DNA from: Plasmodiophora brassicae
Lineage: Eukaryota
Assembly: GCA_036867785.1 (NCBI GenBank)
Contig: CP145410.1
Coordinates: forward strand, 62,001 to 126,000
DNA length: 64,000 nucleotides
Direction: 5' to 3'
The notes below the pieces were generated by a model. That model did no database searches. It was not told where the DNA came from and saw nothing but the letters and a program-made list of their open reading frames with translations. Of the stretch, positions 27,467-58,131 are shown in pieces. The translations under genes and the position numbers were made by a program. The first letter of the stretch is position 1. Each line of letters opens with the position of its first letter.

Positions 27467-27560
27467 GAGTGGAGCTGCACTCTGTAGAGCTGCACTCTGT
27501 GCAACTGCACTCTGTAGAGCTGCACTCTGTGGAGCTGCACTCTGTGGAGCTGCACTCTGC
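27410..27560. repeat. 15-bp minisatellite (CTGTGGAGCTGCACT), ~10 copies
   Basis: Directly visible tandem array with one interrupted unit and three variant units. Confidence 0.95.
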
Positions 27561-27595
27561 ACCGCGTGGGACGTTGTTGTGGTCCGCGGACAGGG

Positions 27596-30500
27596 ATGAC
27601 GGCCGACGATGTCGTGATCGACGTCGCGGCGTACAGGGCGCACATCGGCGTCGGGCTGCTATCGCGGGCAGCGCCGATCGTGGCCGATGTGGTGCCACAG
27701 TCGTCGACGAGCACGGTCGTGGTCTTGGTGGACGCCGGCGTGCCGCCCGGGACGTGGGACGCCCTCGCCGCCGGCCTCCGCCCCCTGTACAACCGCGTCA
27801 TCGTCCACGTCCTGTCGACGTTACCGAACGGGGAACAATGCAAGACACGTGATGTGAAGGCAGGGCTGGAGGACTTCCTGCTCGCGAACGAATGCGGACG
27901 GGACACCGCGTTGGTGATCGTGGGAGGCGGCACCGTCGGCGACCTGTGTGCGTTCGTGGCCGCCACGTATATGAGAGGCATCCCATATATTCATGTACCG
28001 ACCACGCTGCTCGCCATGGTTGATTCATCGATCGGTGGCAAAACCGGCGTCAATACGCCTCGCGGCAAGAACCTCATCGGTGCGTTCCACCAGCCGAGAG
28101 CGGTCCTGTGCGACCCGGCAGTGCTGTCGTCGCTCCCCGACCGTCATGTGTCCAATGGCATGGCGGAAGTCATCAAATCCGGCGCCATCTTCTCGTCATC
28201 GCTGTTCGCCGCCTGCGAGGAGCGGTCGGCGCAGATCATGGCCAAGGACATGCGCTGGCTGACGACGGTGATCGTCGAATCGGTCGCGATCAAGGCCCGC
28301 GTCGTCATCAATGACGAACGCGAGTCGGGCATGCGTTCGTCGCTGAACTTTGGCCATTCGATCGGGCACGGCATCGAATCGGTGACGGGCATGCTGCACG
28401 GGCAGGCGGTCGCTATTGGAATGGTTGCCGAGGTATGGAGCGCGTCACCGTGTTGCCGGTCGCTTCTGTAAACGCTGCGCTACAGGCTCGTTTGACGTCG
28501 GCAACCATCGCACAACGTATCGCCGACTGTGTGTCCTTGTATGCGTTGCCAACGTCGATCCCAGAGGGCGTCGACATGCGCGCCGTCCTGCAACGTATGT
28601 CTGTCGACAAGAAGAACGCCGGTGGGCGGAAGCGCGTCGTTCTTCTCGACACGATTGGTCGGGTTCGTTCAGAGCCATCCTGGACGACGGCCGTCACTGA
28701 CGAGGAAATTCGTCTCGCTGTCGTTGGTCACGACGGGTTCATTGTTTCGCGCTCCAGTGCCCCGCTCTGTGGCGCTGTTCGCGTTCCCGGTTCCAAGTCC
28801 GTTTCAAACCGTGCACTGATCCTGGCCGCTCTGGGATCCGGACGGTGCAAACTCAACGGGATGTTGTTCTCGGAGGACACCCGCGTCCTGATCAATTGTC
28901 TTCGCGCGCTCGGCGTCGTCATTGCGATTTCCGAAGATGGTAGCGTGCTGGTGACCGGGTCCAGCGGGCGGCTCTCTGAGCCATCGGCCCCGCTTTTCGT
29001 CGCTAATGCTGGTACGGCCGCCCGGTTCCTGACCGCTGCTCTGTCTTTGCTTCCCGTTGGCACTTCCGCTGTCCTGACTGGCTCATCGCGAATGCACGAG
29101 CGTCCCTGTGCCGACCTGATCGACTCGCTGACGAAGCATTGCTCCGTTCGCATTGATTGCCTCGGACGCCCTGGCTGCTTGCCGATTCGCGTTCACGGTC
29201 GCGGTGGATTCCCAGGCGGACCTGTTCGTCTGGACGCATCTGTCAGCTCCCAGTTTGCATCCGCCGTGCTCCTCGCGGCTCCGTTCGCTGCTGCCCCTGT
29301 CAAGCTCGTGCTCGGCGCCGATACCGTCAGTCGGGATTACATCACGCTTACCGTTGCCATGATGCAAGCGTTCGGCGCGTCCTGCTCTACAGCGTCCAAT
29401 AACGAATACGATGTCGAAGCCACGGGAGCGTACGCGAACCCGCCGGAATATGATATCGAAGGCGACGCATCCTCTGCGACGTATCCGCTTGCGTTAGCGG
29501 CAGTAACTGGAGGCACCGTTACCGTCAGGAACGTCGGTTCGTCAAGTTCCCAAGGCGATGCCCGGTTCGCAGTTGATGTCCTCGAAGCCCTGGGATGCAA
29601 GGTCGAGCAGACACGCGACTCGACGACGGTAACGGGACCAACCGGGCCTCTTCAGGCCATTGATATCGACATGGGCCCTATGACGGACGCGTTCATCACA
29701 CTGGTGGCCTGTGCGGCCGTGGCTCAAGGTCGAACGTTCATCCGCGGGATTGCCAACCAGCGCGTCAAGGAGTGCAACAGGATCGCTGCCTGCGTCTCGC
29801 AATTGGCTCTACTGGGCGTACCCGCTGGCGAACTGCCCGACGGTCTCTGGGTCGACGGGCGCCCTGGCTTGCGGGTCTCTGGACCTCCCGCCCGCATCGC
29901 GTGCTTCAAGGACCATCGTATCGCCATGGCGTTCACTGTTCTCGGCGCCCGGACCGGGTCGGTCGTCATCACGGATCCACTGTGCGTCAACAAGACGTAC
30001 CCATCGTTCTGGGATGACGTCCGTCTGCAACTACATGGCACCGTGTCCGTTTCCGAACCAGAACGTCGCGTTGAATCCAACATCGTGTACCTGATTGGCA
30101 TGCGAGGCTCCGGGAAGACGCGTCTTGGCCGCAACGCTGCTGAACGTCTCGGCCACCAGTTTGTCGACCTGGACGCCGAAATTGAGAAGCGCTGCTCGTC
30201 AACCGTCGCAGAATACGTGGAGCGGAACGGGTGGCCAGCGTTTCGCTCAATGGAACTCGAAGTTCTTCGCGATGTGACGTTTGGAAAAACAATGGTCGAC
30301 CCATCTGCGAAAGCCATTGTCTCCTGCGGCGGTGGCATTGTCGAATCGCCTGAAGCTGTGGCATTGCTTGGAACACGATCGAACGTCGTCGAGATCCGTC
30401 GCGCGCTGCGTGACCTCAAAGCCGATCTGGAAGCCGATAAGACACGGGCCGTGCTTCCCGATAGCGCTGACGACACATGGGCGAGACGACGGCCCCTGTT

Positions 30501-32477
30501 CGAAGCCGCCAGCCGAACCGAATTCTACATTGGCGCCGGAGATCGCGACTGGGATCGCCTTGGCGGCGAACTCGCGCATCTGATTGCGCGTCTGGGACGC
30601 GGTGACGATCAAGTCGGTGATCAGCGCCGCTCGCCCTTCATGCTGTGCTTGACGTGTCGAGACATCCTGGGTCTCCCTCCCGGTCGTCTTGGCGCTATCT
30701 GCGAAACGGCGGACGTTGTCGAACTAAGGCTGGACTACCTGGACGCCAAGGATGATCCGGATTCGGTTCGAGAGCAGTGGGCGGCTCTACGGTTGGCCCT
30801 TGGACATCAACCTGTTATCTGGACCGCTCGAAGCGTGGGTGAAGGTGGCCGTGTCGCAAACGACGTTGCGTTCAAGCTGCTGAAACTTGGAGCGCGTCTT
30901 GGAGTCGAGTATTTGGACGTCGAGGCATCCTTCCCAGCTGCTGCCCGTGCAGATGTACTGGACAGTGTCACGAAGGCGACTCGAGTGATTGGTTCCCTAC
31001 ACAGCTCCAGAAGCGAGGTCAACGAGGAGATGTTTACGGCCGCTGAATTGGACGGGCGCGCTGATGTGGTCAAAGTTGTGACGACCGCCAGGACAGTGGA
31101 CGACGCCCTGGACATTGTCCAGCACGCCCGCCGGTACCGTTCGAGGCGTCCGAACACGACATGGTAATCATCACGCTCTTCCAGATGCCTGTTCTCTTTG
31201 GCTGACCATGTTCGAAGCATCGCACTGGCGATGGGCGATGCCGGGCGCCTCTCGCGCGCGCTGAACCCTGCGTTCACTCCCGTGACGCATCCCGATCTGA
31301 GCCCTTCCGCACCGGGTACACCTGTGATCATCTTCCGTCTGAAATTTGCGACTGATGCCTTGCTGGTCAGGGCAAGTATCCCTGGCTGCCCTGAATGCTC
31401 TTCGTTATGCTATCGGCGCGATAGCCGTGCGCCAATTCTACCTGTTTGGAGGTCCATCCATCGTGTCGTCGCCGTCTCCTGCGCTCCACAACCAGGCGTT
31501 TGCGTTGTGCGGTCTTCCGTACTCGTACGCGACCGCTGTTTCGGAGACCGGTCACGTCACTGATGACATTCGGCGCATCATCAAGGACGACAGCTTTGGC
31601 GGCGCGTCTGTCACGATTCCCCTCAAGGAGGCCATTATCGACGTGGTATCGCTTTGCGTCGCTGGACGGAGGATCCAATCCATTTGACCACGTGTTCGCT
31701 GTAGCTGGACGGCACAACTGCCACTGCTGGGCGGATCGGGGCGGTCAACACGATTATTCGGGATCCGGAAGACGCCGCTCGTCGCATTGGCGACAATACC
31801 GACTGGATCGGCGTTCGTGATTGCCTGCAACCACATCTGCGCCCGGGTCGTCGTGCAGCAGTTGTCATTGGAGCGGGCGGTATGATGGTCTGGCGCTCGC
31901 CGGAAGACGGCTCCCCGCTGACGTTCCAGTTAGGCACAGCGAAAGCCGCGCTGTTCGCGCTTGAACAGCTTGGGTTCGATCTGGGTCGCGTCCATCTGCA
32001 TAACAGGACCGTCGAGCGCGCGCATGCAATCGCGACCGTGTTCGGGTGCCGCGTGCTGTCTGACCTCGACCGGGATGCCGTTCCCGACGTTGACGTACGT
32101 ACTGACCCTGCTCCGTGTGCGCGGCTGATTAACCAATACTAGCGTAGGTCATTATTAACACGGTGCCGGGCCACGTTGCCATGACCGTGCCCGAGCGTTA
32201 CCTGCAGGACTGCCCGTTAGTCCTGGACGCGAACTACGCTAGAGACGGGACAGGCAACGACCGCGCTGCGTTGCGCCGCCGACCGTTGACTGACACTGGC
32301 TGTACTGTAGCGCTGATGAAGCAGGCCGAGTCGCATGGGTGCACGGTGGTGTCGGGCCAGGCAATGCTCCTGTATCAAGGCGCTGCCCAGTTCGCCGTCT
32401 GGACTGGGATGCGCCCGCCCGTAACCGTGATGCGTAACGCCGTTCAGCAGTTCCTTGCCGCCAAACCTGGCCACTAA
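27596..32477 (+). CDS. ARO1: Pentafunctional AROM polypeptide (DHQ synthase, EPSP synthase, shikimate kinase, type I DHQase, shikimate dehydrogenase)
   Basis: In order: [114 protein letters not shown]. Confidence 0.96.
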
Positions 32478-33582: not shown

Positions 33583-33648
33583 CCTGAACCGGACGCCCCC
33601 GTGAATTAGCCGCCCCGCCGTTTACCTACTCATAATAGAGATTGACGT

Positions 33649-34764
33649 TCATTGGACAGCAGCGTGGCCGGTGCGTGGCGCCGTCATCTGCACGTGCCTG
33701 AACACGCGCACCGCCTTTCGCGCATCCGTGCCGAGGTGCGCAGGAACAACGCCAACAACAGCGATTCGAGCGTTGTTGTCCGGCGCGAGGCAGTCTCCCA
33801 GGAACCGGGTCAGTGCGTGCGCTCGTCTGTGTGCACCGGCGTCGCGTACGCACACGGCCAGCGCGGTGGCCGCCACGGCGTCGACGCCCACGGCCGAGTG
33901 CACGAAGTTGAACTTGGTGGTGGTCGTCCGGCGCCGCCCGTCGTCCCATTGGTGCAGGCGCATTTGCAGGACCCAGTGCCCGATGGTCGCCGATGGCGCC
34001 GACAGGCCACGCACGATCGCCTCGCGCACCGCACCCGCATCGGGGAACGACCGCGACGTCAGGCCCGGCACGGCCCCGTTCCTGGCGTCGGCTTTCAGCT
34101 CGACGACCCGCGTCGACCCCGGCCACATGTCCACGATGCGGTTCCCGGTGATGTTCACCAGCGAGAACGTTAAACGCGGGCGTCGCGCCGCGCTGACGAT
34201 GCCATCCGCCTTCGGCAGCGACGTCGTGGGTTCCGGCGGCGCGCTGTAGTGGCACAGGCGGAAGAACGTGCTGACGGCCGCTGTCACGGCCTGGACGTCG
34301 TCGATGGTGCTGTCGCCGACGCGGACGACGGTGCATTGCGAACGGTCCTGCCAGCAGGTGCCGATCAACGGTGCGTACACGTGCCGGAACAGCTGCCGGC
34401 GGGTGCGAACGATCAGGTCGACGTCAACGGGGACCCGGCGGGCGTGCGCGCCGATCGACAGCGTCCCGCGTTGACGATCGACGGTAACGTCGTCGCGAAG
34501 CACGAGGACGGCTCGTGTCAGGTGCGGCAGCGGTGCGTGCGAGCAGATCGCCTGCAGGCGCATCTGCTCGAGGAGCTGGACGTAGACGAGTTTCGGGGTC
34601 CAACCGGGGCCGATGTCCCCATCGGTACCGAAGTCCCGGTCGCAGAGATCGGCCCAGGGGATGCCGGCGCGGTATGCCCGTGCGACGCGCTCCAGTTGGA
34701 GCACGTCACGAGCCGGCAGGTAGGCGCATACCGGCGCCAGCACCTTGAGCAACGTCGACGACAT
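33649..34764 (-). CDS. F-box protein fused to a degenerate kinesin motor-like domain, intronless
   Basis: F-box-like VLAPVCAYLPARDVLQLERVARAYR...WADLC; colinear kinesin-like segments FSLVNITGNRIVDM, VPGLT, HWVLQMRL, KFNFVH and LTRFLGDCL. Confidence 0.65.
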   Translation of the reverse strand: MSSTLLKVLAPVCAYLPARDVLQLERVARAYRAGIPWADLCDRDFGTDGDIGPGWTPKLVYVQLLEQMRLQAICSHAPLPHLTRAVLVLRDDVTVDRQRGTLSIGAHARRVPVDVDLIVRTRRQLFRHVYAPLIGTCWQDRSQCTVVRVGDSTIDDVQAVTAAVSTFFRLCHYSAPPEPTTSLPKADGIVSAARRPRLTFSLVNITGNRIVDMWPGSTRVVELKADARNGAVPGLTSRSFPDAGAVREAIVRGLSAPSATIGHWVLQMRLHQWDDGRRRTTTTKFNFVHSAVGVDAVAATALAVCVRDAGAHRRAHALTRFLGDCLAPDNNARIAVVGVVPAHLGTDARKAVRVFRHVQMTAPRTGHAAVQ

Positions 34765-35037
34765 CAATGCCGAGGAACGCACCTCAGATATTCATTGCGA
34801 ATATCTTGGTCACCGGCGGGTCCCCGAATTAGACAAACGCGCCGGTGCCGGGTCGGGCGACTCCCGGACCGCCGCGTCCCGATGGCCAGCTGGCTGATCC
34901 GAAAGGGAGGCGCGGCCGGAAGAAGAGAGGCGAACTAGAGAGGGTTTCTGGCGCTCTATTTAACCATACCGGCGTCGTTTAATGTGATCGATTCGCATGG
35001 GTTGCCATGGTAAGCAACTAGTCTTGTACGTCGCCGT

Positions 35038-35323
35038 ACTCGACTTGGAAGACGCGGCAAGCTGCTGATCAAGTCGACTTCGCCCGAGGCCAGGGCGCTC
35101 GAGTCGACCAAACTTCTGACCGAGTCATAAGTCGAGTTGACCGAAGTTGACCTGCAAGGCGACTCGACGCAAGTGGTATGCACCTCTAGACCTTCCACTG
35201 CTGTCGGGCCCGCGGTTCGTCAAGTCGACTTCGCGACTTCAAGTCGACTTGAGCAAGGCTTCAAGCGGCTTGCAAACTTTGACGTCGACTTCGAACGACT
35301 TAGCCAGGCATCGAAGTCGACTT
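35038..35323. repeat. Cluster of palindromic AAGTCGACTT motifs
   Basis: Perfect copies at 35071, 35222, 35241 and 35314, plus about 4 variants. Confidence 0.8.
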
Positions 35324-35413: not shown

Positions 35414-37659
35414 TCACATTCTGAAGACTCCAAACTCGGTGGGTTCAATGGGCGCATTCAGTGCCGCAGTGAGAGACAATCCCAGTACCAGGCGGGTATC
35501 CTTGGGGTCAATTATGCTGCAGGAATGTCCGACGTCAGAGAGGAATCCTTCGATCGTAATTCAGGATCAGTAAACGCCTACCCGTCATCCCACAGCCTTG
35601 CGGAGGAGTAATACGCTGCACTTTCACGTTCAAACTGCTCCAGCAGCGGGGCTTTTACCTTCGCCTCCTCTTCTGCGCTTAGCTGCGTCCCCGATCTCTC
35701 GGCCTTGTCACGCTCCAGCTAACATACACGCCCGTTAGTGATGAGACAGAAGCGCACAGGGCCTCAAACCTGCGCAATGACGCCAGCTGCTTGTTCTGCG
35801 CCCATCACAGATATCCTCGAATTCGGCCACATGTAGAGTAACCTTGGCGAGAACGCTGGAAGAGCTTAGAATCCAACTCGGGCACTGGACGAATATTGTT
35901 GAGGTACCTCGACCACACATTCCTGAGACAGGTAACGAAGATTTGCATGTCAACGAGCTGGGAAGCGATTGAAATGAACAACGTACCATAGTTGCCGGCA
36001 CCGTACGAACCGCCGACAATGAGCGTTAGCTTGGGAACATTTGCACACGACACCGCCATGACCTGCATTAACAGGAGCGGATTGAGACCAGACAGACGAC
36101 AGCACCGTCGTCGGTCCCGACCATTTTCGCACCATGCTTCGCAATGCCTTCCGCCTCGTACTGTTTACCAACCATCTGCAACGCACCAAACATTCACGAG
36201 AAAGCAAGACACGTGATCCACACGACGAGGGTACAAATCCACTGATGTTCTGCAGGAACAGGATGGGCGTGTTCCTCTGCGCGCATATCTCAATGAACTG
36301 GGCGCCCTTCACGGCCGATTCCGAGAACAGGATCCCGTTGTTCGCCACAATACCGATACGTTGCCCGTAAAGATGAGCCCACCCGGTGACCAGAGTATCG
36401 CCGAATCTGTTGACGCATGAGCGACGCGCCTGTTCTCAAAATCAGGAGGACTGACAGTTTCTTGAATTCGAGGAACCGGCTTCCGTCGACAATTCGTGCG
36501 ATGATTTCTCGAACGTCGAACGGTTTCTTCGTTTCTGCAGGTACAATCCCTCGCAACTCGATCGACGGGTACAGGGGCTCCTCGACCTGGCTCAAGTCAA
36601 ATTCGAGCTTCTGTGGCGGTGCTGAGTGGAGTATGGAGCGGGCGATGCTGAGCGCGTGGTCGTCACTCTCCGCCCAGTGGTCAATAACGCCAGACTTTCG
36701 GCAGTGCACGTCGGCCCCTCCAAGGTCCTCAGCTGAAACAACTTCACCCGTTGCCGCGCGAACTAACGGCGGCCCTGCCAGGAACACTGTCCCAGTTCCC
36801 TTGACGATAATGTTCTCATCCGCCATCGCTGGAACGTAAGCACCGCCAGCTGTGCAGCTGCCCATTACGACAGCGATCTGAGGAATGCCCTCTGGACACG
36901 TACAGAGTCAGGCGGGAGCGATACGTGGACGGGCGATCGACGGCAGCATACTCGCCGACATCCGGGCTTGGTTGAAGAAGATGCGCCCAAAGTGGTCACG
37001 GTCAGGGAACGTCTCGCTTTGATTGGGCAGGTTGACACCGCCCGAATCGACGAGATAAACGCATGGCAGACGGTTCTGCTCAGCGATCTCCTGGGCACGC
37101 AGATGCTTCTTGATGGTAATCGGGTAGTACGTGCCGCCCTTGACTGTCGAATCTGAACCGACGACCAACAGGTGTGAGCCATCTCGAGCAACGGGCAGCT
37201 GACGGCACCCCTTCGCCCACCATTGCAAACGATAACGCACTGGCGACCTGCCACTCGTCCAATACCGGTTACGATACTGCCCGCGGGAGTATAGTCCTTG
37301 TACAGGTCGTATCCAGCCAGCTGGGAAAATTCAAGGAACGGTGTCCTGATGGGTATTCAGTGGCGCCCGAATCGGACGCGGGCTTCAGGTTACCCGGGAT
37401 CGACGAGGCGGTCAATTCGATCGCGTGGGAGACGTTTCCCCCTTGCCACATGCCGATCACGGCTCGCCTTCCCGCCACCGAACTTGACCTTCTCGACCAG
37501 TCGCGTCAGGTCGTCCGCGAGCCGGGCCCCGTACGCAGCGTTCGCTTCGTACTCGGCGCCGCCCGTCTCCAACCGGGACTGCAGGACGGGGAACGATGCC
37601 GCGCGGCGACGCGCCGCGCACCCGACCCGGGTACCCACCAGCCTCGGAACCGTCAGCAT
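35414..37659 (-). CDS. MCCC2: Methylcrotonyl-CoA carboxylase beta subunit with mitochondrial presequence-like N-terminus
   Basis: [71 protein letters not shown] and C-terminal FGVFRM*. Confidence 0.95.
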
Positions 37660-38700: not shown

Positions 38701-38729
38701 GCGCGCCGTTGCCATTGGCGCCAAGCAGC

Positions 38730-40047
38730 ATGTCGGCGTCCGAGCTAGCGACGAGTAGCGCACTGACGCGGGCCTGCAGTGGATATTCGTCGACGGCGTT
38801 GCGCCATGTGCGACAGATGCTGGAGGCGGACGATGCCGACTCGCTGGCGGGCGGCGTCCGCGATGTACTCGTTAAGCAGAGGGCGGGCGCGCGTCGCCGC
38901 GTACTGTCGCAGGCGATGCGCGCCCAAATCGAATTGTTGCGCGCCATGCCGAACACTCTGCAGCAGATCGCCATCGACGTTCTCAATAACCCGAACCTGC
39001 TCGACAATGCGGCCTATGTTCGCGAACGCCGCCAAAGAAGTGTGTTGCCGGCTGCGACGTCGAATTCGCGCGGTGACGACAGCGCTCTGCCTCAGTTGAT
39101 CGCCAAGTGGCTCAGGCAGTTGCCTCCTCTGCCACCAATGCCGGCCCATCGCATACGAACTTGGTTTATCCGACCTGGTGACATGCAGGATGAGCCAGCT
39201 GTAGGCAGAGCGTGTGATGCGAATCAGGTGACGGATACCACCGATGGATCCGTTGAGTTGCCAGCAGAGGTCGATCAAAGCGTCTGCGGATCTAGTGAAG
39301 ATGAAGAGTCTGGCGAATACGAATTACATCCCGAAGCGCCAGCGCCGTCTAACGAGGTCAACGAGGAGGTCAATATATCGAGCAGTGGCGATGATGACGA
39401 GGAGGAGGAAGTCGACCAGTACGAGATCGAGTTGTCGCCACGTAAAGAAAGCGTTGAAGCGACACCTGGTGGATCGAAGCATGTGCCGTCGCTCTCTGAG
39501 ATTGCGCTGACTCTGAAATCGGGTACCCCTGAGTTGCCATCAGCCACTGCAACGTCAACGAAGAAACGCAATGACGTGTCTGCGAAGGCGCCCACAAAGC
39601 GTCTGGTGAAACGCGTCAAGTTTGCGAGGCCTGCCCAGAAGTACTGCACGCCGTGTGAATTCTGGGCAACGATGCGCTGTGCCAAGGGCGATCAATGCCC
39701 ATTCAGTCATGACGGAGCACAGACACGATCCAGTGTCATCTGTCGCTACTTTATGATGGGCTCCTGCGTCAAGGGCGAAGACTGCTCGCATTCACATGAC
39801 GTCCCCTGTAAGCATTTCCACCTGGGTAAACGGTGTAAGGATGTCGGCTGCAGGTTCAAGCATGATCCAATGACGACGTCGGTGATAACGACAGGCGCCC
39901 TTTGCAAAGTATCTAACTGTTGTCGGTGATAGGGAGGAGCTGGAACTTTTCCGCCAGCGAGTAAGCCAGGGATACTACCTGAAACCTGCAGCAGCCGCAG
40001 GTGAACCATCTGCGCCAGTGTTGCCAGACAATCCATTCGAGGCATGA
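38730..40047 (+). CDS. CCCH zinc-finger protein with three C-terminal CCCH fingers
   Basis: CEFWATMRCAKGDQCPFSH, CRYFMMGSCVKGEDCSHSH and CKHFHLGKRCKDVGCRFKH; last exon ends DNPFEA*. Confidence 0.8.
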
Positions 40048-55236: not shown

Positions 55237-58131
55237 ATGTCGAGCACACATGGCGGCGCGCCTGTCATCGTGCCGCGCCAGGTGCTATCCGAGGAGGACA
55301 CCCAAGTCCTGTTCCGCAAAGGGAAGATCCTGTCGGAGAAGACGCACGACGCCGTGCGACGCGACAAGGCCGTCCAGCTGTACGACAGGCTGATCCAGGC
55401 GTCCACGTTGCTGACCGATGCACAGCGCGAGGAGTTCAGGGCCGCCGGTAACGGCAAGGTCCTGTACTGCACGTGCACAATCGGACCGCACGCGCTCGAC
55501 GAGAACGGCCTCCTGTTCATGAAGATGGGCGCGGACGCACGCGGCCGCCCCTGCGATTGTCGTTGCACGCAATGCTCGGCGCGTCGTGGCGATCCCCACG
55601 CCCAGTTCCTGGTCGGCGTCATGTATTCGCAGGGGTTCGGCGCCCCGAAGAACATGAACCAGGCGTTCCACTGGTTCTCGCAGGCGGCCAACAAGGAGTG
55701 CCTGCCGGCCATGTTCGCCCTCGGCTACATGTACGACAACGGGTTGAGCGTCAGGCAGAACTACGACGAAGCAATGCTCTGGTACACGAAGGCGGCGAAC
55801 GCCGGGTACCCGGCCGCCAAGTTCCAGCTCGGGTGCATGCTGGAGATGGGCCTGGGCGTCGACAAGGATTTCGCGATGGCCTTGAACCTGTGGTCGGAAG
55901 CGGCCGAGGCCGGGTACCTGCCCGCCCTGCTCCGCCTGGCGTTCGTATTCCGTCATGGGGAAGGCGTCGAACCGAACATGACGGAAGCCGGCCGGTTGTA
56001 CAAATGCGCTGCCAAGCTGGGCGATACGGCGGCCATGACCACCGTCGGGTACATGTACGAGATGGGCCAAGGTTTCGAGCAGAACTTCCAGCAGGCGCTC
56101 GACTGGTACACGACGGCGGCGAAGGCGGGCGACCTGACGGCGCAGGCCAACCTCGCCAGCATGTACGAGCGCGGGCGCGGCGTCAAACGCGACCTGGAGA
56201 TGGCCCTGTACTGGTTCGAGGCGGCCGCCCAGCAGAACGACGCCACGTCGCAGATGATCCTGGGCTCCATGTACGAGCGCATCGAGGATTACTTCAAGGC
56301 GTTTTCCTGGTTCGAGAACGCCGCCGAACAGGGCCTTCCCGAGGCGCAGCGCCGTTGTGCCGACATGGTGCTCGCTGGCAAGGGCGTCGACGTCGACGTG
56401 CAACGCGCGATCTTCTGGTACGAGCACGCCGCGGACGAGGGCGACATCGAATCGATTCGCACGCTGGGCGCGATGTTCGCCGGCGATGGCGAGTACCGCA
56501 AGCTGGTGCGTTCCGATGCGGAGAAGGCGTTCCACTGGTTCCAGAAGGGGGCGGCCGCCGACGACCCGTACTGCAAGTTCAGGACGGCCGAGTGCCTGAT
56601 CCATGGCGACGGCTGCCCGGTTAGCGTCCGGGACGCCCTGGCGCTGTACAAGGACGCTGCCACGAGAGACGACCCGAACGCGATCGTCGCCCTGGGCAAG
56701 TTGTACATCGCCGGGCAGCATGTCGAGGAGGACGCCAACAAGGGGACGCAGCTGCTCAAACGCGCTGTGGAACTCGACTCGCCCGAAGGCAAATCCGCTC
56801 TGGCCGTCCAGATGCTGCTGGGGCAGGGCATCAAGCGCGACGTGTCGACGGCGCTGAAGCTTCTGGGCGAGGCATCCGAAGCCGGGTGCGCATCCGCTGA
56901 CTTCATGCTCGGGTTCCTGTACAAGGACGGCCGGGATGTGCCCCTCGATCTGGAGCGGGCGGTGCGGCACATGACGGCGGCGGCGAACGCGGGCGATTCC
57001 AGGGCGCAGTACAGCCTGGCCTGTCTGTACAAGTCGGGGATCGGCGTGATCCAGTCGTACGAGACAGCGAAACACTGGTTCAAGAAGGCGGCCAAGGCGG
57101 GCGACCACCGGGCGCAGTACAAGCTGGGGCGGCTGTTCGAGACCGGCCGAGGCGTTGCGATCGACTTCAAGATGGCCATCAAATGGTACACGAAGGCGTC
57201 CGAGCACGGCAACGACAGAGCGATGGTGGCGCTTGGCACGCTGTACGAGAAGGGCCTGGGCGCCAAGGTCGACCTGGACCTGGCGGCCAAGTTCTATGGT
57301 CAGGCGGCATCGGCCGGATCACCGGCCGGGCTCTGCGCCCTCGGCCTGCTGTACGACCTCGGCCGTGGCGTCAAGCAATCGTACAAGAAGGCGTTGCAGA
57401 TGTACGAGGCGGCCGCCAAGCAAGGGTACCCGAAGGCCATGTTCTACCTGGGCTACCTGTTGCAGTACGGGCAGGGCGTTGCGAAAGATGTGTCGAAGGC
57501 CGCCGAATGGTACAGGAAGGCAGCGGAAGCGGGTGACGGCGACGCGGCGTTCCACCTCGGGCGCCTGTACGACGAGGGCAGTGACGGGGCGGTTCAGAGG
57601 GACGCGGGCACGGCTCGGAAATGGTACACGTCTGCTGCTCAAGGTGGGCACACGGGCGCGGCCGATCGCCTGCGGGAGCTGGGCTACCCGGTGACACTCG
57701 ACGGCGGGAGGCTGACGAGAGCGGGATCGAAGACGACCAAGGTGGTCACCGGGCCGAACGGTCTCGTCAGGCGCGTGACCGGGCAGGCGATGAGCGCAGC
57801 GAACGCGGCGACTGGATCGGCGCTCACCCAGCAGGACAGCGACGACGAGAACGATGCGCAAGGAGGCAAGCAGCGTCGTCATCGTCAGCGGGCGCAGAAC
57901 AGCGGCCAGCCGGTACGGACGGTCGAGGACAGCGTTGCAATGGCTGCCGCTGCGGCCGCTGACCTCGCTGTGCCGCCCCCTGCCGGGCAGGCCACGACCG
58001 TGCCGCCTGCAACCGACGCGCCGCAGAGCGACGCCATCCTGGCCAGAATGAAATCGCTCTGGGATGACAACGCCACGCCGGCCACCACGGGCAACGGCGC
58101 GACGCCTGCTCCGATCGATGTCGGTCAATAG
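55237..58131 (+). CDS. Sel1-like repeat protein with ~18-20 repeats, apparently intronless
   Basis: Repeated AxxxLGxMYxxGxGVxxDxxxAxxWYxxAAxxG units across one 968-codon ORF. Confidence 0.92.
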   Translation: MSSTHGGAPVIVPRQVLSEEDTQVLFRKGKILSEKTHDAVRRDKAVQLYDRLIQASTLLTDAQREEFRAAGNGKVLYCTCTIGPHALDENGLLFMKMGADARGRPCDCRCTQCSARRGDPHAQFLVGVMYSQGFGAPKNMNQAFHWFSQAANKECLPAMFALGYMYDNGLSVRQNYDEAMLWYTKAANAGYPAAKFQLGCMLEMGLGVDKDFAMALNLWSEAAEAGYLPALLRLAFVFRHGEGVEPNMTEAGRLYKCAAKLGDTAAMTTVGYMYEMGQGFEQNFQQALDWYTTAAKAGDLTAQANLASMYERGRGVKRDLEMALYWFEAAAQQNDATSQMILGSMYERIEDYFKAFSWFENAAEQGLPEAQRRCADMVLAGKGVDVDVQRAIFWYEHAADEGDIESIRTLGAMFAGDGEYRKLVRSDAEKAFHWFQKGAAADDPYCKFRTAECLIHGDGCPVSVRDALALYKDAATRDDPNAIVALGKLYIAGQHVEEDANKGTQLLKRAVELDSPEGKSALAVQMLLGQGIKRDVSTALKLLGEASEAGCASADFMLGFLYKDGRDVPLDLERAVRHMTAAANAGDSRAQYSLACLYKSGIGVIQSYETAKHWFKKAAKAGDHRAQYKLGRLFETGRGVAIDFKMAIKWYTKASEHGNDRAMVALGTLYEKGLGAKVDLDLAAKFYGQAASAGSPAGLCALGLLYDLGRGVKQSYKKALQMYEAAAKQGYPKAMFYLGYLLQYGQGVAKDVSKAAEWYRKAAEAGDGDAAFHLGRLYDEGSDGAVQRDAGTARKWYTSAAQGGHTGAADRLRELGYPVTLDGGRLTRAGSKTTKVVTGPNGLVRRVTGQAMSAANAATGSALTQQDSDDENDAQGGKQRRHRQRAQNSGQPVRTVEDSVAMAAAAAADLAVPPPAGQATTVPPATDAPQSDAILARMKSLWDDNATPATTGNGATPAPIDVGQ

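Follow-up and report, generated by a model that had tools for sequence, protein, structure and literature searches.

An apparently single-exon gene of Plasmodiophora brassicae probably encodes a degenerate, non-motor derivative of the kinesin motor domain

A 64 000-nucleotide stretch of Plasmodiophora brassicae DNA (contig CP145410.1, positions 62 001 to 126 000 of the forward strand; referred to below as the window) was analysed with respect to one open reading frame (ORF) on its minus strand, window positions 33649–34764. The frame is uninterrupted over 371 codons plus a stop codon, and the predicted protein of 371 amino acids is called P0001 here. It is best explained as the product of a real single-exon gene in which a stalk-less, highly degenerate descendant of the kinesin motor (residues ~84–365) would follow a short helical N-terminus. 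As the P-loop, switch I and switch II are replaced, P0001 would neither bind nor hydrolyse ATP in the manner of a kinesin and would not act as a motor; judged by analogy with other non-motor kinesin-like proteins, it would most likely be a static protein-binding or scaffold module. This combined reading, comprising a real gene, a degenerate non-motor derivative of the kinesin motor and a static binding or scaffold role, is held with moderate confidence. An earlier reading, made from the letters alone and termed the sequence-only reading below, had described the ORF as an F-box fused to a dead kinesin motor and had proposed a microtubule-associated substrate adaptor of an SCF (Skp1–cullin–F-box) ubiquitin ligase. 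The ORF was found with exactly the coordinates and open frame given there, and all 11 of the 11 peptide strings that it quoted are present in the order listed, with GDSTID at residues 150–155 and HSAVG at residues 289–293.

The connection to kinesins runs through a single relative. When 1.84 billion representative proteins were searched in full with HMMER, two matches besides P0001 itself were returned, P0002 and P0003, of which P0003 (387 residues, encoded on a single 3,666-base ENA contig; E = 1.7e-7) is the sole credible relative. BLASTP aligned the two proteins with E = 5e-16 and 24% identity over 305 columns, residues 124–368 of P0001 (245 residues) running collinear with residues 49–349 of P0003. 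The local alignment score of 161 was not reached by any of 2000 composition-preserving shuffles (mean 35, maximum 70, z ~25). When P0003 was compared with the 64-kb window by tblastn, the P0001 ORF (E = 7.7e-14) was alone below E = 1, the next best match having E = 4.6, and no paralogue of P0001 was found in the window by this search. P0003 in turn matched the Pfam Kinesin family (PF00225) with E = 3.8e-12 and 46.3 bits (cut-off 29.3), its residues 32–334 covering profile positions 39–319 of 327, and the four PDB chains that it matched at E up to 10 were all kinesins. Since the region shared by P0001 and P0003 overlaps the region of P0003 covered by PF00225, P0001 may be regarded as homologous to the kinesin motor by transitivity, and the derivation of its C-terminal ~280 residues from a kinesin motor domain is supported indirectly.

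Structure-based comparisons name the same family. All 45 matches listed by Foldseek for an AlphaFold model of P0001 were kinesin motor domains, with E from 3.5e-5, and in VIA-align, which is a re-examination of Foldseek's own match list, the 50 matches listed were all entries with kinesin motors (best Z 8.2). In the best of these superpositions 98 residues were aligned with a root-mean-square deviation (rmsd) of 3.4 Å, model residues 192–292 lying on residues 124–236 of kinesin-1; overall, model residues ~190–365 superposed on the second half of kinesin motors. The model contains five short strands (residues 85–120), helices 123–137 and 154–170, strands 197–222, helix 243–255, a strand pair (262–289), helices 294–307 and 314–325, strand 334–338 and helix 348–364, a predicted order that agrees with that of the elements in kinesins. 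By language-model features, in the ESM Atlas, the two top clusters of P0001 were likewise kinesins, sharing 153 and 145 features with it at a score of 0.90.

Several results weigh against this descent. Pfam Kinesin was not matched by P0001, either whole or as residues 121–371 (0 families at E up to 10), a phmmer search with P0001 found no kinesin among PDB sequences, and a two-sequence profile built from P0001 and P0003 gave 0 matches in the PDB. The AlphaFold model, calculated from an alignment of two sequences, has a mean pLDDT (predicted local distance difference test) of 41.5 with no residue reaching 70; the Foldseek TM-scores are only 0.18–0.25 with an rmsd of 18–23 Å; a best Z of 7–8 is typical of VIA-align even for models without a true match; and in the Atlas chance or distant matches also reach a score of 0.90 and 153 shared features, so that this result serves as a lead only. 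A chance resemblance, P0001 being an orphan of some other fold unrelated to kinesin, would account for the missing direct sequence match and for the low confidence of the models, and the P0002 match (E = 1.2e-8), probably inflated by eight repeated stretches, illustrates that E-values of this kind can mislead. It is nevertheless very improbable, given a collinear alignment with P0003 that lies far beyond the shuffles, the passing of the Pfam Kinesin threshold by P0003 in that same region, and the agreement of two further approaches, fold search and language-model features, on kinesins. The statement in the sequence-only reading that the C-terminal region is collinear with the kinesin motor thus stands, beyond chance, by way of P0003, while direct Pfam and PDB matches are absent. 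The checks that it had proposed divided in the same way: PF00225 is not matched by P0001 itself and is matched above its cut-off by the relative, and the modelling and fold search listed kinesins exclusively, from a model of low confidence and with low TM-scores.

The remaining matches were rejected. P0002, a bacterial repeat protein of 1,959 residues, was set aside as repeat-inflated chance, one 39-residue piece having been matched eight times. The piece comprises residues 83–121 of P0001 (window 34402–34518), which match eight tandem repeats of P0002 with 38% identity; the small strands at the start of the motor-like domain occupy the same residues. The PDB entries returned by phmmer for P0001 (BRICHOS, GST and amide-hydrolase proteins, E = 0.11–2.1) were also taken as chance, including a weak likeness of residues 117–189 to the BRICHOS domain of surfactant protein C (E = 0.11–0.3). 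Wider searches brought no further members: in a search of 5.8 billion proteins for proteins of near length, with P0001, the alignment and P0003 as queries, only the queries themselves were recovered, and none of the 86 and 38 pattern matches from two scans of metagenome contigs was confirmed.

Kinesins carry a P-loop of the form GxxxxGK[ST], a switch I NxxSSR and a switch II DxxGxE. The P-loop GATGAGKT of a solved kinesin aligns with GAHGSNRV of P0003, which aligns in turn with GDSTIDDV of P0001; at the Lys and Thr positions P0001 has Asp and Val and P0003 has Arg and Val, and GxxxxGK[ST] is absent. The place of switch I and the strand after it presumably corresponds to the block TIGHWVLQMRL, where P0001 reads SATIGHW and P0003 reads RRNIGHW; only the His is kept and SSR is absent. 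At the position that we take to be switch II, DxxGxE is replaced by HSAVGV in P0001 and by QMACTD in P0003. The destruction of all three nucleotide motifs, as claimed in the sequence-only reading, was thus borne out at the aligned positions, and because all three are replaced the use of ATP by P0001 is very unlikely. P0001 is probably a non-motor ‘pseudo-kinesin’. The blocks that it has in common with P0003 (IGHW.LQ.R, K.N.V, LTR.L.DCL and V.G.V.P) lie on core elements of the domain, and this, together with the spoiled P-loops of both proteins, suggests that catalysis was probably lost before P0001 and P0003 separated and that the fold has been retained since, as far as two sequences can tell. 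The pair would form a tiny, fast-evolving family.

The claim that the microtubule-binding face survives proved true in part. The LTRxLxDxL helix and the strand after it, corresponding to alpha5 and beta8, are conserved between P0001 and P0003, and the stretch of P0003 matching them aligns with LTRLLKDSLGGN...ISP of solved kinesins. The interval from the switch II relic to the LTR helix is, however, only 23 residues in P0001 (residues 295–317, direct count), compared with about 60 residues in P0003 (counted by eye) and about 45 residues in kinesin-1. The main tubulin contact of kinesin is formed by L11, alpha4 and L12, and much of this surface seems to be missing from P0001, which makes microtubule binding doubtful.

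The coding nature of the frame does not follow from its length. In the window (~60% G+C, eukaryotic DNA), 145 frames run for 150 codons or more without a stop, and a crude coding filter lets 67 of them through; such G+C-rich DNA often contains long open frames, and ORF length by itself is therefore no proof of a gene. The G+C contents at the three codon positions (GC1/GC2/GC3) of the P0001 frame, 0.70/0.52/0.84, agree with those of the ten Pfam-confirmed coding stretches of the window, in which GC1 exceeds GC2 and GC3 is 0.61–0.90, and those of an overlapping alternative frame (0.83/0.66/0.55) and of the antisense frame (0.61/0.63/0.89) are both unlike the pattern of confirmed genes. The identical protein was found on five contigs from NCBI and Logan sources, the longest of 1.94 Mb.

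Transcript data consisted of assembled contigs of four runs from four studies; they carry no strand, and their depth cannot rank genes. No run containing this stretch is recorded as RNA. Spliced forms of both flanking genes were present, however, with each of eight joints seen in all four runs, together with loose ends carrying poly(A) and adaptor; the four runs are therefore RNA-derived in substance. The P0001 ORF was represented in every run by one or two short contigs of 128–250 bases with a word depth of 2.2–5.6. Those inside the ORF (33943–34070, 33946–34195, 34175–34422, 34094–34310 and 34418–34643) together span 33943–34643, with almost no cover in bins 33661–33811 and 34718–34868 and with no single contig across the whole ORF. 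No splice joint was seen within the ORF in the four runs, where cover is patchy, and these data agree with the earlier description of the gene as intronless. Four variants occurred in the ORF contigs, two synonymous (codons 172 and 187) and two non-synonymous (G188S and V232M). On the opposing side, contigs without strand indicate presence only and do not prove a mature mRNA, and a two-member family with four variants is too small for constraint to be measured. The stretch and its spliced neighbours were also found in runs labelled with three other organisms, the variant in run X12 being ~1% different, which suggests a parasite, a symbiont or a mixed-culture organism with several strains.

These data bear on the possibility that the ORF is a decaying relic, that is, a former kinesin gene drifting without function whose frame is still open through recency or high G+C and whose contigs reflect background transcription. 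Such a relic would fit the extreme divergence of P0001 (24% identity to its sole relative and no direct Pfam match), the loss of all catalytic motifs together with the short alpha4 region, the frequency of long chance ORFs in the window and the shortness of the contigs on the ORF. We nevertheless consider it unlikely, for the three-base coding signal is fully intact (GC3 0.84, GC1 above GC2), the 371-codon frame is unbroken with an identical protein on five contigs, and the blocks shared with P0003, the P-loop of which is also spoiled, fall on core strands and helices, a pattern that points to a fold long kept after the loss of catalysis.

The N-terminal segment was examined separately. PF12937, an F-box family, was the sole Pfam family matched by N-terminal pieces of 50, 60, 90 and 120 residues (E = 0.052, 0.087, 0.076 and 0.15, respectively), with 12.3–13.8 bits compared with a cut-off of 24.3; neither a 200-residue N-terminal piece nor the whole of P0001 matched this or any other Pfam family. 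As a control, 145 segments of 50 residues without a stop, drawn at random from every frame of the window, were scanned against Pfam. A match at E up to 0.15 was obtained for 21 of the 145, nine of them explained by a real gene at that place and 12 having only unexplained weak matches, and one of these 12 segments matched the F-box family PF00646 (E = 0.081, 13.3 bits). That segment lies antisense to a CCCH zinc-finger gene (window 38720–38869, minus strand), and F-box profiles evidently catch Leu/Arg/Ala-rich translations of this DNA. As a control segment reaches 13.3 bits, the F-box score of P0001 is at chance level for this DNA. A model of residues 1–90 has a pLDDT of 49.8 and contains helices 4–14, 18–32 and 37–42 plus one longer helix. 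Foldseek returned no F-box protein for it among nine rows, all with E > 4, a result that is uninformative at this pLDDT, and in a wide VIA-align search of the same weak model none of 48,161 chains reached Z of at least 5 and no F-box protein was among the 50 matches listed. The F-box-like N-terminus of the sequence-only reading was not substantiated, the best PF12937 score staying well below the gathering score and being equalled by the control, and its SCF substrate adaptor is unsupported so far, with a score of half the cut-off and a relative without this N-terminus.

If residues 1–45 were nevertheless a working F-box on Skp1, the dead kinesin fold would be the part of an SCF ubiquitin ligase that recognises substrates or targets it to microtubules. 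This arrangement draws on PF12937 being the sole family for the N-terminal pieces, with residues 8–33 in register with profile positions 8–33 of 47, on the location of the segment at the extreme N-terminus, which is the usual place of an F-box, on the three short predicted helices, and on an F-box cluster at rank 3 for residues 1–85 in the ESM Atlas. Set against these are the score of about half the curated cut-off, the lack of a match for the 200-residue piece and the whole protein, a control segment that scores as well, and an Atlas score for that cluster of 0.79, below the lead threshold of 0.9. The canonical start of the motif with Leu-Pro is absent, and the predicted P0003 has the motor domain at its very start, without this N-terminus, although its gene model may be truncated on a contig of 3,666 bases. 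The microtubule-directed part of the idea is weakened by the shortened segment between switch II and alpha5. A true F-box at the N-terminus of P0001 is accordingly a minority view that we regard as rather improbable, and the complete SCF arrangement is a little less probable still; the non-motor kinesin derivative with a static role remains the preferred reading of P0001. The coordinates of the gene and of its parts are collected in Table 1.

Table 1. Features of the P0001 gene in window coordinates
Feature	Window positions	Strand	Residues	Basis or remark
Whole ORF P0001	33649–34764	-		Apparently one exon; coding-type GC1/2/3; identical protein on 5 contigs
Candidate F-box-like segment	34630–34764	-	1–45	Three predicted short helices
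PF12937 match	34666–34743	-	8–33	Pfam score below cut-off
Predicted long helix between N-terminal segment and motor-like domain	34537–34596	-	57–76	Low-confidence models
Degenerate kinesin motor-like domain (indirectly supported)	33670–34515	-	84–365	P0003 alignment, Foldseek, VIA-align
Part aligned with P0003	33661–34395	-	124–368	BLASTP
P-loop relic GDSTIDDV	34294–34317	-	150–157	Aligned via P0003 to solved kinesin
Presumed switch I place, TIGHWVLQMRL and strand after	33955–33987	-	260–270	Block common to P0001 and P0003
Strand and presumed switch II relic, KFNFVHSAVGV	33883–33915	-	284–294	P0003 alignment
Helix alpha5 and strand beta8, ALTRFLGDCL to RIAVVGVVP	33742–33816	-	317–341	Conserved with P0003

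The gene is tightly bounded, with a convergent C2H2 zinc-finger gene at one side and a carboxyl-transferase gene upstream. Contigs of the zinc-finger gene (plus strand) stop at 33640–33662 in the four runs and thus reach or pass the stop codon of P0001 (33649–33651), the 3' ends of the two genes abutting or overlapping. Contigs of the carboxyl-transferase gene start at 34967–35030. In window 34990–35300 a short word of the type AAGTCGACTT is repeated many times; according to the RNA contigs the repeats lie in the 3' end of the carboxyl-transferase transcript, ~200–500 bases upstream of the P0001 ATG. In the same gene (minus strand), a joint at 35857–35986 skips 128 bases yet carries 12 other letters in all four runs, and these look like a 12-base micro-exon. 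Short spliceosomal introns were seen in the neighbouring genes, with skips of 49–65 bases and ends of GT..AG or CT..AC. Housekeeping genes of the window encode an AROM shikimate enzyme, methionine synthase, ribosomal protein L6e and the F-actin capping alpha subunit. The AROM-type exons (27518–31167, plus strand) run in one direction and comprise 3-dehydroquinate synthase, EPSP synthase, shikimate kinase and type I dehydroquinase, and an ORF of 964 residues at 55237–58131 (plus strand) contains 14 Sel1 repeats (E = 8.4e-134).

Motor-domain homologues without motor activity are known elsewhere. The vertebrate KIF26 proteins (KIF26A and KIF26B, kinesin-11) are large, have long tails and still bind microtubules. 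P0001 would resemble them as a motor-domain homologue that does not act as a motor and has a signalling or scaffolding role; unlike them, it is 371 residues long, lacks both stalk and tail, no longer has the P-loop lysine and is shortened in the alpha4 region. The sequence relationship seen between them is that of the shared superfamily. The description of KIF26A as a non-motor kinesin is taken from one paper (PMC10585591). Kif7/Costal2, Smy1 and the fungal pseudoKinesin-21 combine a kinesin fold with degenerate or unused motor chemistry and with scaffold or passenger roles, as P0001 would. Such non-motor scaffold and passenger properties are found in Cos2 and Smy1. Structures of Kif7 were among the fold matches of P0001 (7rx0 and 6mlr in Foldseek, 4a14 in VIA-align). 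No specific affinity of P0001 to one kinesin subfamily was apparent, the listed fold matches being a mixture of kinesin-1, -2, -3, -4, -5, -7, -8, -13 and -14. PseudoKinesin-21 is named as a fungal orphan group in one paper (PMC5076506). In open-access full text the term ‘pseudokinesin’ was found in one paper, and no description of an F-box fused to a kinesin motor was found. The layout proposed for P0001 would be that of FBXO-type F-box proteins, in which a short three-helix box at the N-terminus precedes a globular domain that could recognise substrates; unlike in those proteins, the F-box membership of P0001 is below the profile cut-off.

Should the N-terminus be a true, diverged F-box, P0001 would be the first described SCF receptor with a catalytically dead kinesin fold as its recognition module, an outcome that we think unlikely. 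Such an SCF module could present tubulin, proteins bound to microtubules or other partners of kinesins to the ubiquitin system, which might be that of the host if the organism is a parasite. The fusion would be a new link between the cytoskeleton and the ubiquitin system, for which the present evidence is at chance level.

As a non-motor kinesin derivative, P0001 belongs, judging from its sequence, to a known but thinly sampled class of kinesin-like proteins, of which it would be a new and extremely degenerate member: it has no stalk, its three nucleotide motifs are gone and part of the microtubule-facing segment appears to be missing. Because standard domain searches are blind to it, published kinesin counts of its lineage probably omit such a protein. 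P0001 would illustrate the extent of divergence that the kinesin fold can undergo while being retained, and together with P0003 it may provide a concrete two-member family in which to ask what purpose a kinesin core without nucleotide serves.

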